Below, piece by piece: positions 1-7,242 of a stretch of DNA of 64,000 nucleotides. Under the pieces are notes generated by a model. The model worked only from the letters and a program-made list of their open reading frames with translations. It searched no databases and was not told where the DNA came from. Made by a program: the position numbers and the translations under genes. Position 1 is the first letter of the stretch; each line of letters opens with the position of its first letter. Origin of the DNA: Promethearchaeota archaeon Loki_b32 (lineage in GTDB: Archaea > Asgardarchaeota > Lokiarchaeia > Sigyniarchaeales > SOKP01); assembly GCA_005223125.1 (NCBI GenBank), contig NJBH01000009.1, forward strand, positions 1 through 64,000, written 5' to 3'.

Positions 1-44
1 GTCATTTATAAATATAAAAATTATCTAAAGAATAATACAACAAA

Positions 45-129
45 TGCGGGAAGAGGGATTTGAACCCTCGAACTCCTCTGAGACTGGATTCTAAGTCCAG
101 CGCCGTAGACCAGACTTGGCAATTCCCGC
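45..129 (-). tRNA. tRNA-Leu (anticodon TAG)
   Basis: Reverse complement GCGGGAA...TTCCCGC-A acceptor stem; anticodon arm CTGGA-CT-TAG-AA-TCCAG; long variable arm; GGTTCAAATCC T-loop; CCA not encoded. Confidence 0.95.
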
Positions 130-299
130 ATTAAAATAACAAATATTGTAATTGTTTTAGTATTTAAAGTTGGAAAGACTATTGTTGCTTTAGACTGAAT
201 AAAAATTTTGATTTGATTTTAGGATTTCTTTAGTTTTTTACTTATAAGAATTGCTACAAGAGAGAGAAAACCAAATCTAAAAAAAAATAAAAAAAAAGA

Positions 300-1613: not shown

Positions 1614-2714
1614 ATGATTAGGATTTCATTAAATGAAGAATTAAAGAAACTTCTCTTAGGAAAAGGAGCAATAAAAGTTGGATTTACTACTCTTGAAACC
1701 CTAGCGGGAGGTCCTCCGGGGTCAGACATAACTTATGTATTACCGGAAGCGCAATCCGCAATTTCTTATGCTCTTCCGTTAAATCGGGACTTAATACGCC
1801 CCTATTTAAAAAAAGAGCCTAATAGTAGAGTTAATCTCGAAAATGATAGATTTAACGTTACAATGAAAGCGTGGGATATCTCTAAAGAAGTTGCAGAGTT
1901 ATTAAGAAAAAAGGGATTTAAAGCGTTTGCAGTCATGTCTAATTTTAAATATCGAAAAGATTCGGAAGACTGGAATTATGAGTTGACTCCAGATATTTCT
2001 CTTAGATATTTAGCACTAAGAGGAGGTGTTGGTTCGTTCGGTTGGAGTGGTAATTTAGGACTTAAAGGTTATGGGCCACTCTTTACCTTAGGAGGAATTG
2101 TCACATCTGCAATGTTAGAACCAACCGATCCTATCCCTGAATCTGAGTCATTCTGCAATAAGTGTAAAGTATGCGTTAAAGTATGTGCATTTAGAATGTT
2201 CGACGAGGAAGAAGAAGTTACGATAAAAATTGGAGGACAAGAATATACACATGCTAAACGAATTGATAAAGGACGATGTCATATGGTGTGTGGGGGATAT
2301 TCGGGGTTAGATATCACGGGAAAATGGTCTACCTGGAGTGCGGGGCGCTATGAGCAACCGAAAACAAAACATGAGGCGATAGTATCGTTGATTCGGGCAC
2401 AAAAAAACTGGTTTAAACTACCTAAGAGAGAGGATGCCAAATTTTACGACTATAAGGACATCGAAGAACTTCAAAATGTCCCCTTCATAGGAAATAAAAC
2501 CGTAAAATTAGGAAATTATTTGCTATTTACCTGTGGACACTGTCAGATTGTATGTTGGGGCGATCCAAAGGAGACTAACGAAAATTACCGCTTGCTTAAA
2601 AATTCTGGCTGCGTAGTTCAGAAGGAAGATGGATCAATCGTGGTTCTTCCCCCCGTAGAAGCAAAAAAAGCTTTTGATAATTTGGATCCTGAACATAAAA
2701 AATTGTATCATTAA
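1614..2714 (+). CDS. epoxyqueuosine reductase (QueG)/reductive dehalogenase-like cobalamin and 4Fe-4S protein
   Basis: GAIKVGF, SLRYLALRGGVGSFGWSG, CxxCxxCxxxC (CNKCKVCVKVC) and TCGHCQIVC motifs. Confidence 0.8.
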   Translation: MIRISLNEELKKLLLGKGAIKVGFTTLETLAGGPPGSDITYVLPEAQSAISYALPLNRDLIRPYLKKEPNSRVNLENDRFNVTMKAWDISKEVAELLRKKGFKAFAVMSNFKYRKDSEDWNYELTPDISLRYLALRGGVGSFGWSGNLGLKGYGPLFTLGGIVTSAMLEPTDPIPESESFCNKCKVCVKVCAFRMFDEEEEVTIKIGGQEYTHAKRIDKGRCHMVCGGYSGLDITGKWSTWSAGRYEQPKTKHEAIVSLIRAQKNWFKLPKREDAKFYDYKDIEELQNVPFIGNKTVKLGNYLLFTCGHCQIVCWGDPKETNENYRLLKNSGCVVQKEDGSIVVLPPVEAKKAFDNLDPEHKKLYH

Positions 2715-2727
2715 AGTTTAATTTAAA

Positions 2728-3069
2728 TTGATTAAAATGACAGAGAAAGAAATTTTTAAAGGTAAGATTGGTTTTGAAGGACTTAGAACAAGAATCGAAG
2801 CATTTCATGATTTAATGGTTGGCAACAAGAAATCTAATCCATTGTTTAGAGATGCCAAGTATGTGGTCCCGGATGAAATAAAAAATATATATTTTAAGCC
2901 GAAATCCAATTTTGAATATTTCGTGTCTAGTATTGAAACACCAATGTCAAAGGTTTTAACAATGCTGAATCCATCAAAGAAATTAGATGTAGGATTCGCC
3001 GTTAAGAATGGACTCGAGTTTTTTTCAAGAAATTCGTTTTTTGGTATCGGATCTCTTTTTAACCTTTGA
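2728..3069 (+). pseudogene. chimeric remnant containing the C-terminus of a reductase-domain (PlsR/DUF2229-like) paralog
   Basis: GFEGLRTRIEAFHDLM matches SYEGMRTRLEAFVDLI near the C-terminus of 3362-4552; roughly the first 340 aa are absent. Confidence 0.65.
2952..3041 (+). repeat. 90-bp exact direct repeat, copy 2
   Basis: Identical to 1058-1147. Confidence 0.92.
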
Positions 3070-3083
3070 GAGGCTATTTTGTT

Positions 3084-3176
3084 ATGAAAGTTTCTTTTCC
3101 AAATATGGGCAATTCGTGGCCGGCGTTCAAGACTTTCTTCGAGTGTATGGGTGTCGAGGTGTGTTTAACTCTCTGA
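3084..3176 (+). pseudogene. 30-codon N-terminal fragment paralogous to 3362-4552
   Basis: MKVSFPNMGNSWPAFKTFFECMGVEVCLTL* vs MILSFPNMGPNWVAFKTLFEAL; preceded by GAGAGG SD-like motif. Confidence 0.8.
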
Positions 3177-3361: not shown

Positions 3362-4552
3362 ATGATTCTCTCATTCCCGAACATGGGTCCCAACTGGGTA
3401 GCGTTCAAGACACTTTTCGAAGCTTTAGATCCGTCAATAAAAGTAATCTTACCCGACCCCACTAATAGGGAAGCCATTAAAGTCGGTGTAAAATACAGTC
3501 CGGAGTTTGTATGTTTTCCTTTTAAGGCAACATTAGGAGATTTTGTCAATGTTATCAAAAAGGGGGCCGATACTTTAGTAATGGCTATAGATTGCGGACC
3601 TTGTCGTTTTGGTTTTTATCATGCCGTCCAAGAGCGCCTATTACATGATATGGGTTATAAAAATGTAAGATTAATTCCATTAGATCAAGCAGATTTACTA
3701 GAATTTCATTGGGTAAAAACTCTTCAAGAAGTAAGTGGTAAAAGTGGTTTATTTTCATATCCTAAATTTGTAAAGGCAGTGATTTTTTTCTTGAAAAAAG
3801 CGAAGCTTTTGCAGGACATTCAGACTGCGGAAGGGTTGTTCCGTGCATATGAACGAAATCAGGGGGATACTACTGACGTTTTGAATAATATATTAATTAA
3901 ACTTGATCAAACTAATACTCTAAAGGAACTACGAAATTTTAAAAAAGTAATCAAGGAAGATTTTAATAAAATTGATGTTGATAAAACACGAACTCCTTTA
4001 CGGGTAGCCATATTTGGTGAGATTCATATAAGTTTAGAGCCATATGTTAATGTGGATATTAGACGTAAGCTTGGTGAAATGGGAGTGGAGATACATCAAA
4101 ATCTAAGTTTATGGGATTGGGTTTCCCATAAATTCCATTTAAATTTTCATCGAAGATGGCTAGAACACTTATCTCACCCATATGTTCCCATGGATATTGG
4201 AGGGGAATGCCAATGGGTTTTAGGAGAATACATTGATAGAGCTAAAAGTGGCTTCTCAGGTGCATGTCATGTGTACCCCTTTACCTGCATGCCCGAAGTG
4301 ACCGCAAGGACTATTATAACTAATAAATTAAAGAAAATGTATGATCTCCCTATAATATTCTTTTCCTTTGATGAAAATTATTCATATGAAGGAATGAGGA
4401 CAAGATTAGAAGCGTTTGTAGACCTAATAGAATCAAGACGTAAACATAAATTAGGAATAGAACGAATTTCCTATGAAGAGGAAAAGAATAATTTCTATAA
4501 ATCTAATGGTTCACATTTTTTTCAGGAATGTATTCAATTAATTCAGACATAA
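3362..4552 (+). CDS. 2-hydroxyacyl-CoA dehydratase-related Fe-S reductase domain protein (PlsR/COG3581-like)
   Basis: SPEFVCFPFK, GPCRFGFY, GEIH, GGEC, PFTCMPE, FDE..EGMRTRLEAF motifs. Confidence 0.8.
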   Translation: MILSFPNMGPNWVAFKTLFEALDPSIKVILPDPTNREAIKVGVKYSPEFVCFPFKATLGDFVNVIKKGADTLVMAIDCGPCRFGFYHAVQERLLHDMGYKNVRLIPLDQADLLEFHWVKTLQEVSGKSGLFSYPKFVKAVIFFLKKAKLLQDIQTAEGLFRAYERNQGDTTDVLNNILIKLDQTNTLKELRNFKKVIKEDFNKIDVDKTRTPLRVAIFGEIHISLEPYVNVDIRRKLGEMGVEIHQNLSLWDWVSHKFHLNFHRRWLEHLSHPYVPMDIGGECQWVLGEYIDRAKSGFSGACHVYPFTCMPEVTARTIITNKLKKMYDLPIIFFSFDENYSYEGMRTRLEAFVDLIESRRKHKLGIERISYEEEKNNFYKSNGSHFFQECIQLIQT

Positions 4553-4561
4553 GAGTGGTGC

Positions 4562-5590
4562 ATGAAAATAGTACAAGTTTCAGATAAAGTTGTTAAAGAA
4601 GATGGAAAGCTTGATGCTTTTCTTGGAATTGATATAGGAAGTGTTACATGTAAATTTGTGTTGATGGATATGGATGGTAATGTCCTTGAGAGTGTATTTT
4701 TACGTAACAGAGGATCTCCTATTGAGTCTGCTAAAGCGGGTATGGAAGATTTACGATTAAAAATAGAACAAAATGAACAAATCCAAGAATACGCAATACG
4801 TTGTTGTGGAACTACAGGCTCAGCGAGGTATTTAACAAAAGCTATTGTTGGTGGAGATCTTGCTAAAACAGAAATTATTGCACATGCAGTCGCAACTCAA
4901 TCTCTATATCCAGATGTAAGCACAATTTTAGAGATTGGAGGACAAGATTCGAAAATCATCATTTTGCGGGATGGGATAATTGTAGACTTTGCGATGAATT
5001 CTGTATGTGCTGCAGGTACTGGTTCTTTTCTTGATCATCAAGCTTCAAGGCTTGGAATTCCAATTGAGCAATTTGGAGATTATGCCATAAGATCGAAAAA
5101 TCCAGTGAGCATTGCAGGAAGATGTACCGTATTTGCAGAATCAGATATGATCCACAAGCAAAATGCTGGATATACTAAAGAAGATATAATTGCAGGTTTG
5201 TGCGACTCATTAGTTAGAAATTATATGAATAATTTGTCAAAAGGAAAAGAATTAGCAGAGCCTATAGTTTTTCAAGGAGGTGTATCCTATAATAAAGGGA
5301 TTATAGAAGCCTTTGAAAGACACTTGGGCTGTGAAGTAATCGTACCTAAATATAATGTTTTAATGGGAGCCTTAGGAATGGCAATACTCGTCAGAGATTA
5401 TTATTTAGACCACGCAACCGAAACGTTGTTCCGAGGTCTCGATGTAGGTGATATTGAATTCAAAACATCGACATTCCACTGTGGAGATTGTCCAAATAAT
5501 TGTGAAATTGTTCAAGTTAAAATGCCCCAAGACGAAAATAAGGTAATAGCTCGTTGGGGGAGTAGATGTGGAAAATGGGAGGTATTTTAA
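4562..5590 (+). CDS. CoA-substrate-specific enzyme activase (HgdC/BadFG ASKHA ATPase, 4Fe-4S)
   Basis: LGIDIGSVTCK, TTGS, EIGGQDSK, MNSVCAAGTGSFL, GRCTVFAESD, FQGGV; C-terminal CGDCPNNC...RCGKW. Confidence 0.93.
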   Translation: MKIVQVSDKVVKEDGKLDAFLGIDIGSVTCKFVLMDMDGNVLESVFLRNRGSPIESAKAGMEDLRLKIEQNEQIQEYAIRCCGTTGSARYLTKAIVGGDLAKTEIIAHAVATQSLYPDVSTILEIGGQDSKIIILRDGIIVDFAMNSVCAAGTGSFLDHQASRLGIPIEQFGDYAIRSKNPVSIAGRCTVFAESDMIHKQNAGYTKEDIIAGLCDSLVRNYMNNLSKGKELAEPIVFQGGVSYNKGIIEAFERHLGCEVIVPKYNVLMGALGMAILVRDYYLDHATETLFRGLDVGDIEFKTSTFHCGDCPNNCEIVQVKMPQDENKVIARWGSRCGKWEVF

Positions 5591-5594
5591 GAAT

Positions 5595-5789
5595 ATGGCA
5601 GAATTTATCAAACAAATGAAAGAGTTGGGTGAAGAGTTCCTTGAAACCCTTAAACATAAGACGAAATTAAGCACAATTTTCGACCTTTATACAGAAAAGG
5701 TAATCCCCACCTTTGTTTCAGAAAAAGATTTAAAAGAATATTATGAAAAAAGAATGGAAGAATTTAATAATTTTATAGATAAATTATAA
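5595..5789 (+). CDS. small helical hypothetical protein in operon
   Basis: ATG 4 nt after activase stop, GGAGGT upstream; 64 aa. Confidence 0.6.
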   Translation: MAEFIKQMKELGEEFLETLKHKTKLSTIFDLYTEKVIPTFVSEKDLKEYYEKRMEEFNNFIDKL

Positions 5790-5805
5790 TAAGAGGTAAT
5801 AAAAT

Positions 5806-6489
5806 ATGAGTGAAAGTACAAATCCAGAGATAAAGGAAGAAGGAGATAAATTAAATCCAAAATTACTCGCTTTTGATATGCTTTATGGTGCGGTAAAAGG
5901 ATTAAGTGGGTTATTCTTTAAGACTTTCATGGATTTAAAAATTGAAGGAAAGGACAACATTCCAATAAGAGGTAAAGCAATTTTAACAACCATTACACCA
6001 AACATTATTCGTGATATGCTAATAATAAGTCAGGTATCAGGGAGAAAAATTCATTTTATGCTTGATCCAAAGTTAATGAAGCATCAAATTGCAGGTCCCG
6101 TTTTGAAAAGTCTTGGAATGATTCGAGGAACTGAAAGTAAAGAAGACACTGAACCTATCGAAAAAATCTTTGAAATTTTAAATGAGAAAGGTGATCTTGT
6201 AGGAATGACACCTGAATCAAGGCATGATCGTGAAGTACAGATAAAATCCATGGCAGCAATAATAAAATTCGCAATTGTGGGGGAAGCGCCTATTATTCCA
6301 ATAGCGATTTTTACAGAAAAAGCGAAGATATTAAATATGTTTGACGGTGATGCCATAAAAGTAAAGATTGGAACACCTTTGCAAATCGAAAAAAGATTAA
6401 ATCGAGAGAAACATAGAGCTGAGCGCTATGAACTCGCCGAAGACATAATTAATATTATCGATTCCCTTAAAGAAACACCTGAAATTTAA
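5806..6489 (+). CDS. PlsC/lysophospholipid acyltransferase-fold protein lacking the catalytic His
   Basis: KIEGKDNIP..GKAIL, RKIHFM, GMTPES, APIIPIAI, VKIGTP blocks; NHxxxxD replaced by TITPNIIRD. Confidence 0.75.
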   Translation: MSESTNPEIKEEGDKLNPKLLAFDMLYGAVKGLSGLFFKTFMDLKIEGKDNIPIRGKAILTTITPNIIRDMLIISQVSGRKIHFMLDPKLMKHQIAGPVLKSLGMIRGTESKEDTEPIEKIFEILNEKGDLVGMTPESRHDREVQIKSMAAIIKFAIVGEAPIIPIAIFTEKAKILNMFDGDAIKVKIGTPLQIEKRLNREKHRAERYELAEDIINIIDSLKETPEI

Positions 6490-6549: not shown

Positions 6550-7242
6550 TTACCAAATTCCTGGAAGTAATTTATAACGTGTTTTTTGAGCGTACTCTTT
6601 ATATCCTTCAAGTTGTTCATGTAAAATTTTATCTTCATAGGAAGTTCGGATAACAATAGTTATAATAACACCAGTACACGGTATCAAGGTGTAATGTGAA
6701 CCAAGTGCAAGGCAATGACATATATATAATACAATAACAGTGACATACATAGGATGACGAACGATTTTGTATGGTCCTGTTGTTATAACCCTGTGTCCTC
6801 GTTCTTCTTGAATCTCAACAACTCTTGAGAGATATGTATTTTCTCTATTAACCAAGAAAAATAAAATTAATGAGAGTCCCATTCCAATGAATCCAATGAA
6901 GTTAATTATAATAGAAACATGAGACCATTGGAACCTCACAGCATCAAAACCTGGAAGGATATACATTGCTATAATAAAAATTCCAGCAATAGCTCCAAGT
7001 TTTTTATCCCAACTTTCTATAGCTTTCGTTTTAGCCCTAGCTTTTAGCAATTCAGGATCCTTTTTCTTTAGATATGTCATAAATGTTATAGAGAAAGTGA
7101 TCATAAAAATTATGTAAATCCATCCTTGAAGCCAAAAAATGGTCCAAGCAGGTAAAAATAATGATAAAGCTATAATAATATACCTTAAAATAAATTTTAT
7201 AACCGGATTAGGATCAGATTTCCTTTTAGACATAAATTTCAC
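6550..7242 (-). CDS. isoprenylcysteine carboxyl methyltransferase (Ste14/PEMT) family membrane protein
   Basis: HRVITTGPYKIVRHPMY, ED..L, GYKEY..KTRYKLLPGIW. Confidence 0.9.
   Translation of the reverse strand: MKFMSKRKSDPNPVIKFILRYIIIALSLFLPAWTIFWLQGWIYIIFMITFSITFMTYLKKKDPELLKARAKTKAIESWDKKLGAIAGIFIIAMYILPGFDAVRFQWSHVSIIINFIGFIGMGLSLILFFLVNRENTYLSRVVEIQEERGHRVITTGPYKIVRHPMYVTVIVLYICHCLALGSHYTLIPCTGVIITIVIRTSYEDKILHEQLEGYKEYAQKTRYKLLPGIW

Follow-up and report, generated by a model that had tools for sequence, protein, structure and literature searches.

Organization of the Red2–activase locus

Between positions 3362 and 6489 of the window (i.e., the whole 64,000-nucleotide stretch of Lokiarchaeial DNA that was analysed), four co-oriented ORFs are separated by intergenic gaps of only 9, 4, and 16 nt, which confirms the tight spacing described in the initial annotation. 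The first ORF (3362..4552, + strand) encodes a 396-aa protein, Red2, a predicted PlsR-like reduction/dehydration subunit as judged from its Pfam DUF2229/HGD-D matches, Cys motifs, and AlphaFold model. It is followed by a single ASKHA-type ATP-dependent activase (4562..5590, +; 342 aa), recognized by a TIGR00241 score above cut-off, its C-terminal extension and its position in the activase tree, by a conserved 64-aa protein without known family (5595..5789, +; delineated in a 32-sequence alignment), and by a pseudo-PlsC (5806..6489, +; 227 aa, PF01553), i.e., a protein with the glycerolipid acyltransferase fold in which the His of the HX4D motif is lost. The motifs initially read from these ORFs (CFP, GPCR, GE, PFTCMP, and a CxxCxNNC...GxRC tail) were all borne out. 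Promoter and terminator scans gave results at chance level.

Two gene remnants lie upstream on the same strand. The segment at 2761..3069 (+) corresponds to the last 102 codons of a 444-aa Red2 from a second, paralogous cassette, and shares 85–97% aa and 93–98% nt identity with the 3′ end of the paralogous Red2 gene in other genomes. In relatives, this paralogous cassette (FAD-binding::Red1, Act, Red2) is situated directly upstream of the operon. Its FAD domain was considered as a possible AGPS-like domain and rejected as such, since it is of the VAO/PCMH type, with cytokinin dehydrogenases as best matches and a weak AGPS score. The other remnant (3084..3176, +) is a 30-codon N-terminal piece of another Red2 copy, with 64% identity to the N-terminus of the window Red2 and 89–92% identity to comparable fragments in relatives.

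The window also encodes an AMP-binding ligase, a DAGK/YegS kinase, and two PEMT/ICMT genes, all unlinked to the operon, in agreement with the acyl-CoA ligase, lipid kinase, and PEMT/Ste14-like genes listed initially. One PEMT gene (6550–7242, minus strand) is absent beside the operon in related loci and was not counted as an operon member.

Red2, its Red1 partner, and the activase

Red2 displays Pfam DUF2229 at residues 8–72, next to a weak HGD-D match (below cut-off). Its residues C51, C81, and C309 are invariant among 126 sequences and are likely ligands of a [4Fe-4S] cluster. While a sequence search of the PDB with Red2 returned no match, the AlphaFold model (pLDDT 96) found its best PDB matches in HadBC, BzdNO/MbdON, and DCCP, at 10–15% identity. 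The Red2 motifs agree with those in the Red2 part of PlsA-type proteins.

The DUF2229 subunit Red1 is missing from the window. A search for it, as proposed in the initial annotation, located the Red1 gene on contig C59 of the same genome, behind a tandem PlsC gene. Its conserved Cys residues are C63, C101, and C289, so that Red1 and Red2 carry three each.

The activase also matches Pfam BcrAD_BadFG, and has C149 and C188 as its cluster Cys residues. Its C-terminal extension (CxxCxNxC...GxRC, with C307, C310, C314, and C336) resembles the second activase domain of PlsA. This extension, a feature derived in the present analysis from PlsA-architecture proteins and not from a published motif list, was present in 56/56 activase orthologues and in PlsA-type Act2, and in none of the HgdC/Bcr/YjiL-type activases tested. 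A second PlsA-type activase was not found in the window genome.

A Lokiarchaeial operon in three pieces

In relatives, the unbroken operon reads HAD phosphatase–PlsC–PlsC–Red1–Red2–Act–64aa–pseudo-PlsC. In the window genome it is spread over three pieces, with the HAD gene on contig C63, PlsC-PlsC and Red1 on contig C59, and the remainder in the window; no contig-end overlap joining C58, C59, and C63 was found. The proposed four-gene operon is thus correct in its order and incomplete in its extent, with Red1 and the motif-intact PlsC residing on C59. The operon is taken to be ancestral to Lokiarchaeia, and the window holds its 3′ half.

The order from PlsC-PlsC through pseudo-PlsC is complete in nine loci, a tandem PlsC lies 5′ of Red1 in about 20 loci, and the HAD phosphatase is found directly upstream in 16 loci of the family, as well as in f3 and Helarchaeota-type loci. 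Of the related loci, 44 extend 2.5 kb or more 3′ of the activase; the 64-aa gene is present in 41 of them and a PlsC-fold gene in 42, so the arrangement is not due to chance. In the window genome's family, both the 64-aa protein and the pseudo-PlsC are operon members. The linkage to PlsC-family genes is kept across Lokiarchaeia and proved stronger than initially claimed, extending to the cultured strains P. syntrophicum MK-D1 (DSAG12_00862–00859) and L. ossiferum (NEF87_002902 region), to H. repetitus, and to Helarchaeota. For MK-D1, a 2020 RNA-seq run contains the whole operon, although such a run can hold it as DNA, and the published RPKM of the four genes (234–278) equals that of neighbouring genes and is thus uninformative.

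The PlsC-linked cassette was found in Lokiarchaeia only. Heimdallarchaeia copies form a different clade. In one genus of this group the cassette follows DegV-PlsY and in another it follows DegV, so that a fatty-acyl context exists there independently; lipid-gene neighbours are missing from most Heimdallarchaeia copies and from every PlsC-less Loki paralogue. At E 1e-30, no match was obtained in other Asgard families, and a PlsC neighbour was seen in no bacterial or unassigned cassette that was examined. Moreover, some near-complete congeners (e.g., G002 and G030) yielded no Red2 and the operon is split in the window genome, so that it is dispensable there.

PlsC-type proteins and the 64-aa protein

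The window PlsC-fold protein matches Pfam Acyltransferase (PF01553) with an E-value of 4.6e-7, and scores far under the TIGR00530 cut-off. The catalytic His of HX4D is lacking in all aligned homologues: across 57 sequences, position 65 is P, D, K, or S and never H, while D70 is invariant. The block I Asp and block III Pro-Glu are kept, and the Gly-Thr of EGTR is lost. Its homologue in Helarchaeota-type loci is the third domain of an 872–876-aa triple-PlsC protein. In contrast, the tandem PlsC on contig C59 passes TIGR00530 and has two HX4D motifs and the [PA]EGT[RT] motifs intact. The acyltransferase fold assigned initially therefore stands, whereas the window copy is a predicted pseudo-enzyme and the motif-intact PlsC lies upstream of Red1. 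In the window genome, G006, and G060, all PF01553 domains found belong to this operon.

The 64-aa protein aligns without gaps over its 32 sequences (mean column identity of 83%), and its conservation extends into a second family. It received no Pfam, NCBIfam, or Atlas assignment, and showed no match to the 876-aa triple-PlsC fusion.

A single-activase branch of the DUF2229 superfamily

In the activase tree, the HgdC/Bcr activases make up one side of a 100/100 branch, and in the Red2-subunit tree HAD/BCR subunits (HAD here denoting 2-hydroxyacyl-CoA dehydratases) split off with an SH-aLRT of 97. The comparison with HgdABC and BcrABCD called for by the initial annotation thus placed the subunits apart from both. 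The Red2 copies of Lokiarchaeia group in a clade of their own (SH-aLRT 100). The single-activase cassette emerged as the sister group of the two-activase PlsA architecture and is not nested within the PlsA/PlsR clade, with Listeria, Fusobacterium, and similar proxies standing in for the C. perfringens, E. faecalis, and T. maritima sequences; the Listeria protein serves as an architecture proxy only, as no paper confirming a plasmalogen synthase role for it was found. Consequently, the initial PlsA/PlsR/Ger-like label holds for superfamily membership (by motifs and trees) and fails as a grouping with the two-activase PlsA/Ger architecture. On the same evidence, the cassette belongs to a widespread single-activase subfamily of the DUF2229 (PlsA/PlsR/Ger) superfamily. 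The window subunits scored far below cut-off for TIGR02259/03192/02261.

PlsA/PlsR (C. perfringens CPE1195/1194; fused PlsA in E. faecalis EF1327 and Lactococcus) has the same four kinds of module motif as the cassette. The motifs common to the PlsA type, checked on complete proteins with the PlsA architecture (from Listeria, Fusobacterium, and others), are CxxCxNxC...GxRC in the activase, CxP...SFxCG in Red1, and CxP...GxCR...PFxCxP in Red2. However, PlsA has two fused activase domains where the cassette has one activase gene, and the cassette consists of three separate genes (Red1-Red2-Act) in an operon with PlsC, with a Red2 clade apart from the PlsR type and an activity that is predicted. 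With Ger (T. maritima Tmari_0479, Desulfatibacillum alkenivorans) the cassette shares its PF01869, PF09989, and PF06050(-like) content, Red1 being contributed by contig C59. Ger starts with BBD, i.e., two activase domains fused to Red1, a start conserved in all alkyl-ether producers (PMC13159169), whereas the cassette has a single B, in the window the 342-aa activase.

The single-activase DUF2229 cassettes of Bacillota, Nitrospirota, and others (e.g., Monoglobus pectinilyticus) match the Loki cassette in gene order, sizes, and motifs, fall in the same activase clade (94/94), and have 32–40% Red2 identity to it. In the loci examined, the PlsC, HAD phosphatase, 64-aa, and pseudo-PlsC neighbours occur on the Lokiarchaeia side only. 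No biochemical test of such a three-gene cassette was found in the literature, and in Bacillota single-activase homologues correlate with plasmalogen production (PMC13274423).

Homologues of ester-to-ether enzymes are not new to Asgard archaea, since Ger homologues have already been reported in Lokiarchaeota including MK-D1 (PMC13159169). These published matches probably include separate, fused genes of 1,410–1,480 aa, which are distinct from the cassette. Fused Asgard genes of 1,430–1,480 aa are nearer relatives of the two-activase PlsA/Ger architecture than the cassette is.

Proposed function and alternative readings

While the parts of the cassette, their order, cluster-ligand motifs, and family are established at the sequence level, its activity is a matter of interpretation. 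On balance, and with modest confidence, we read the cassette as an ATP-driven reductase of acyl-glycerolipid esters, with vinyl ethers as its probable products. In favour are the motif match of each module to two-activase PlsA-type proteins, the separation from HgdC/Bcr types in the trees, the conserved PlsC and HAD phosphatase linkage, and the DegV and PlsY neighbours of the Heimdallarchaeia clade. The characterised family members are ester-to-ether lipid enzymes (PMC13274423, PMC8788747), and the ester-reductase mechanism is summarised in PMC8788747. From family knowledge, the PlsC domains would use acyl-CoA as donor for acylating either glycerol phosphate or a lyso-lipid, and the HAD enzyme may take off the phosphate. 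The activase homodimer, with its bridging [4Fe-4S] cluster, would use ATP to drive single low-potential electrons into the Red1/Red2 heterodimer, where two-electron reduction of the lipid ester carbonyl, protonation, and water loss would give a vinyl ether (plasmalogen type), perhaps reduced further to an alkyl ether. The pseudo-PlsC would most likely pair with the acyltransferases and bind lipid or acyl groups without being catalytic itself. In the window genome, which carries a GGR-GGGPS-DGGGPS cluster, one would expect a non-isoprenoid or mixed ether lipid as product, either minor or made conditionally.

The initial proposal of an archaeon converting fatty-acyl esters to ethers is not supported as stated, since after ether cleavage the lipids of the MK-D1 co-culture are phytane and biphytanes only (PMC7015854, PMC11316595). 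Next to these isoprenoid-only lipids, points against the ester-to-ether reading are the placement of the cassette outside the two-activase PlsA clade, the split operon, the PlsC-less bacterial cassettes, the Heimdallarchaeia copies and Loki paralogues lacking lipid neighbours, and the fact that neither PlsY nor GpsA was found in the window genome, in which a glycerol-kinase-like match fell below the family cut-off.

The lack of n-alkyl chains after MK-D1 ether cleavage would fit together with the PlsC, HAD phosphatase, and DegV context if scavenged bacterial glycerolipids or acyl chains were remodelled or degraded without any membrane ether lipid accumulating, for instance by cleaving the ester reductively to give an aldehyde or an alcohol, or by radical dehydration of a hydroxy-acyl chain. 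A GDPD gene near the f3 locus and the fold shared with 2-hydroxyacyl-CoA dehydratases point the same way. Nevertheless, PlsC enzymes in which the HX4D and PEGT motifs are intact are normally biosynthetic and the characterised enzymes with these reductase motifs produce ethers, and we consider such remodelling rather unlikely. Alternatively, the substrate might be no lipid at all but a soluble CoA ester or cofactor intermediate, with the PlsC adjacency being one ancient inherited juxtaposition. Indeed, the PlsC-linked Red2 copies all fall in one clade, indicating that the link arose once; the three-gene cassette is also seen with no lipid genes beside it in bacteria, in Heimdallarchaeia, and among Loki paralogues, and members of the wider family sit in que and ABC-transporter contexts. 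We still deem this unlikely, given that the PlsC link persists 5′ as well as 3′ of the cassette, whether the genes are fused or split, and across orders, and that a separate clade independently adjoins DegV and PlsY. Fused two-activase PlsA-type genes are likewise without a PlsC neighbour in the records examined, so a missing neighbour is no argument against a lipid substrate. HadBC/HgdAB with HadI/HgdC, class I benzoyl-CoA reductases, and DCCP/DCCP-R have the reductase fold, activase family, and ATP-driven single-electron transfer in common with the cassette, but a classical amino-acid-fermentation dehydratase (HgdABC/HadBCI) or class I benzoyl-CoA reductase is highly improbable: Red2 shares only the aforementioned 10–15% identity with those structures, the Cys motifs differ, the activase extension is missing in them, the trees largely refute this assignment with separate, well-supported branches, and HAD-like (C18) and BCR-like (C67) clusters of its own are encoded elsewhere in the genome.

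A more far-reaching scenario is that, in lineages without the canonical archaeal entry steps, PlsC puts a fatty or isoprenoid acyl chain on G3P and the reductase turns the ester into an ether, replacing GGGP synthase as the source of the main membrane ethers. GGGPS (PF01884) was not above cut-off in 12 of the 24 genomes outside the window's genus, 11 of which have the cassette. These GGGPS-negative genomes include single-contig MK-D1 (for which the absence is already published), L. ossiferum, and H. repetitus, although the last is a scaffold of two contigs. An EgsA-type G1P dehydrogenase was not found in these three, while GpsA is present (E about 1e-53) and adjoins a PlsC in L. ossiferum; in H. 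repetitus no DGGGPS-like gene was found. Yet the cassette and GGGPS-DGGGPS coexist in the window genome and in most members of its genus, MK-D1 may take archaeal lipids from its partner, and the GGGPS-negative genomes are kin, so that the pattern may stem from one or two losses. Such a replacement as the main supply is therefore distinctly improbable, and it is only slightly less doubtful that some Lokiarchaeia (including MK-D1 and L. ossiferum) use the operon to make membrane ethers in this manner on a G3P backbone. If true, the stereochemistry of their membranes would be bacterial in part or for the most part, and the ether bonds would derive from esters.

Significance

It is an open question how the archaeal host of eukaryogenesis exchanged isoprenoid G1P ethers for fatty-acyl G3P lipids, and for most Asgard archaea the lipids have yet to be measured (PMC12993045). 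In Lokiarchaeota, homologues of PlsC and Ger were already known as scattered genes without an assigned pathway, and are now joined in one class-wide operon, for which no earlier description was found. As far as homology goes, this operon brings lipid acyltransferases of bacterial type together with a relative of membrane ester-to-ether enzymes. Because it is present in cultured Asgard strains with named genes, the question of bacterial-type ether lipids becomes directly testable against a defined lipid target. A lipid role, if true, would moreover be the first function for the widespread single-activase DUF2229 cassette.

A split operon with a proposed role in forming and reducing ester lipids

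The window carries half an operon. Four co-oriented genes on the plus strand, whose coordinates in the initial annotation were borne out, are separated by 9, 4 and 16 nt and encode a DUF2229/HGD-D-like reductase subunit (Red2, 3362–4552; Pfam/NCBIfam), an acyl-CoA dehydratase-type activase (Act, 4562–5590; TIGR00241 above cut-off), a 64-aa protein without a Pfam/NCBIfam family (5595–5789), and a weakly matching acyltransferase of the PlsC fold (5806–6489; Pfam/NCBIfam). Near-identical relatives lie in Promethearchaeota (Lokiarchaeia) MAGs. Of 44 informative loci, 41 have the 64-aa gene after the activase gene and 42 the PlsC-fold gene, so the four-gene unit is real.

The genome's sole strong DUF2229 gene, encoding the other reductase subunit (Red1), is located on contig C59 (6153–7220, minus strand), preceded by an 80-aa ORF and, before that, by a tandem PlsC of 555 aa in which both HX4D motifs are intact. 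Nine loci of relatives show the contiguous order PlsC-PlsC-Red1-Red2-Act-64aa-pseudo-PlsC (pseudo-PlsC being the window's PlsC-fold protein), about 20 have a tandem PlsC upstream of Red1, and 16 loci of the window's family have a HAD phosphatase directly upstream of the operon, the orthologue of which is on contig C63 in the window's genome. Because no overlaps between contig ends connect the operon-bearing contigs, and the genes after Red1 on C59 are unrelated to the operon, the separation looks like a real rearrangement.

The Red1–Red2 interval is a hotspot, where many relatives hold a paralogous cassette directly upstream of the resident Red2 (i.e., a VAO-type FAD-binding domain fused to Red1, an activase and a 444-aa Red2; L077:2965–7825, also L062 and L102), and window positions 2761–3176 are a leftover of this cassette. 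The paralogous Red2 is 88–95% identical between genomes (vs. 73–90% for their resident Red2), and the paralogous activase clusters with the Helarchaeota type while its Red2 clusters with the MK-D1 family; this higher identity and discordant grouping suggest recent spread and a mosaic origin. A 90-nt part of the remnant is present in two exact copies (1058–1147 and 2952–3041), ca. 0.9 kb from a tRNA-Leu gene (44–130, minus strand), and between the copies lies a QueG/reductive-dehalogenase-like Fe-S protein gene (1614–2714, plus strand; below both family cut-offs). This duplicate and a 35-nt one (at 1498 and 1760) may have been left by a rearrangement or may reflect misassembly. An intergenic element of ca. 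55 nt (1280–1334), with 87–94% identical copies on contigs C13 (twice), C64, C3, C45, C28, C10 and C33, could be a short repeat or the end of a mobile element. Several congeners also carry a divergent two-activase PlsA-type gene (865–985 aa) near operon pieces (L148:2635–5592, L149:14775–17732, L151:3241–5838); none was detected in the window's genome.

Conservation of the PlsC link

Other families of the order have one or two PlsC genes upstream of Red1-Red2-Act, among them the genomes of P. syntrophicum MK-D1 (DSAG12_00862–00859), Ca. H. repetitus and Ca. L. ossiferum (NEF87_002902 region). Helarchaeota-type genomes encode an 872–876-aa fusion of two PlsC domains and a pseudo-PlsC domain, after which come a LarA-like gene (not in all loci), a HAD gene and then Red1-Red2-Act. 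The LarA (lactate racemase)-family gene occurs in two of four such loci (L119:11480–12862, L122:4111–5487); a racemase inside a glycerolipid operon could bear on the stereochemistry of the backbone. One genome (G049) has a co-oriented PEMT/ICMT-family gene within the operon, between the PlsC pair and Red1 (L125:4114–4890).

An alignment of 57 pseudo-PlsC sequences has P, D, K or S where the catalytic His should be, with a fully conserved Asp and high identity overall. The window's protein is therefore, as judged from its sequence, a pseudo-enzyme. In Helarchaeota-type loci it is fused to two PlsC domains, which points to a role as a non-catalytic acyltransferase partner. The proposed link to the PlsC family is conserved in Lokiarchaeia, but the lipid argument thus depends on the upstream PlsC genes rather than on the window's own. 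Every PF01553 domain detected in the window's genome, G006 and G060 lies in the operon, whereas one or two additional domains of this kind lie outside it in MK-D1, L. ossiferum and H. repetitus.

Among 200 Asgard genomes, the PlsC-linked clade was detected in Lokiarchaeia only, two Heimdallarchaeia families hold a separate, 30–37% identical cassette clade, and the remaining families gave no cassette match at E 1e-30. Heimdallarchaeia cassettes are located 3′ of DegV (fatty-acid-binding) and PlsY genes at L179, L195, L198 and L191 (DegV-PlsY directly upstream in three genomes of one genus, DegV in one genome of another); most copies have no neighbouring lipid gene. No PlsC gene adjoins any bacterial or unassigned cassette inspected; one of these does have genes for a lipid A-type acyltransferase and an MGDG synthase within a short distance upstream (a few genes).

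Family placement of the cassette

The three cassette genes correspond to modules of two-activase PlsA-type proteins. Orthologues of the cassette activase (56/56) share with the second activase domain of PlsA a CxxCxNxC...GxRC tail that is missing from the tested activases of the HgdC, Bcr and YjiL types. Red1 carries CxP...SFxCG and Red2 CxP...GxCR...PFxCxP, with three invariant Cys per subunit, and the AlphaFold model of Red2 (pLDDT 96) adopts the HadBC/BzdNO/DCCP fold, with no more than 10–15% sequence identity.

A 100/100 branch sets the HgdC/Bcr activases apart, and a quick Red2 tree, rooted on HAD/BCR subunits, separates these at support 97, so that the branching with 2-hydroxyacyl-CoA dehydratases that would have spoken against the initial annotation was not seen; by contrast, the dehydratase-like genes on C18 and the benzoyl-CoA-reductase-like genes on C67 of the same genome do belong to these outgroups. 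The window proteins cluster with single-activase three-gene cassettes, e.g., of Monoglobus (activase 94/94; Red2 grouping 86), outside the PlsA/PlsR-type clade as represented by Listeria/Fusobacterium-type proxies for the characterised enzymes. Among Asgard proteins, those closest to that type come from separate fused genes (1,430–1,480 aa). The cassette lacks the fusion of two activase domains and Red1 (BBD) that defines characterised PlsA/Ger enzymes (PMC13159169). The suggested PlsA/PlsR/Ger-like identity therefore stands at the level of the superfamily, of which the cassette is by motifs and trees a member resembling PlsA/Ger in anatomy, but not at that of the clade.

Lipid-gene background

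The window's genome has GGR-GGGPS-DGGGPS-like genes clustered on C44 and a glycerol-kinase-like gene scoring below cut-off; PlsY and GpsA were not found in it. Of the 37 genomes of its genus, 34 gave a GGGPS match but none an EgsA-type G1P dehydrogenase at E 1e-20; in Helarchaeota-type genomes, by contrast, EgsA scores above cut-off. In the MK-D1 family, 11 of 14 genomes lacked GGGPS above cut-off, as already published for MK-D1. Five of these (MK-D1, L. ossiferum, H. repetitus, G037 and G040; L215–L219) have a strong GpsA (G3P dehydrogenase) with EgsA not found either; in L. ossiferum, gpsA and a plsC with intact motifs face each other convergently (L219), and no DGGGPS-like gene was found in H. 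repetitus. The published claim that MK-D1 is without ester-lipid genes contradicts its own DSAG12_00862 annotation.

Proposed function

The PlsC domains would, from family knowledge, form acyl-glycerophosphate esters, which the HAD phosphatase could dephosphorylate. An activase homodimer would hydrolyse ATP and pass single electrons via a cluster on C149 and C188 to the Red1/Red2 clusters, for two-electron reduction of the ester followed by protonation and dehydration to a vinyl ether, cf. the PlsA mechanism (summarised in PMC8788747). A vinyl ether is favoured as the product since, in Bacillota, the occurrence of single-activase homologues correlates with that of plasmalogens and of alkyl ethers in minor amounts (PMC13274423). 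We consider this PlsC acylation with ATP-driven ester reduction to a vinyl ether somewhat more probable than its negation, although ether cleavage of MK-D1 co-cultures gave phytane and biphytanes only (PMC7015854, PMC11316595).

That the cassette performs another lipid reaction, which would also account for the PlsC link, seems unlikely, and a non-lipid substrate, to which the Heimdallarchaeia copies lacking lipid neighbours would lend some room, quite unlikely. A route replacing GGGPS appears improbable: the cassette is present in 11 of 12 GGGPS-negative genomes outside the window's genus, but as these are kin and several are incomplete, the pattern is a lead rather than a statistic. A classical dehydratase, which Red2 recalls in fold, is very improbable given the trees.

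Ger homologues in Lokiarchaeota, with a proposal of bacterial-like ether lipids (PMC13159169), PlsC and chimeric-lipid ideas (PMC6737245), and a mosaic of ester-lipid genes (PMC8813620) have been described; in the literature covered, outside which most subscription papers fall, no paper was found on the operon, pseudo-PlsC or an archaeal single-activase cassette. The proposed function of the operon is likely rather than established, and it is directly testable in cultured strains.
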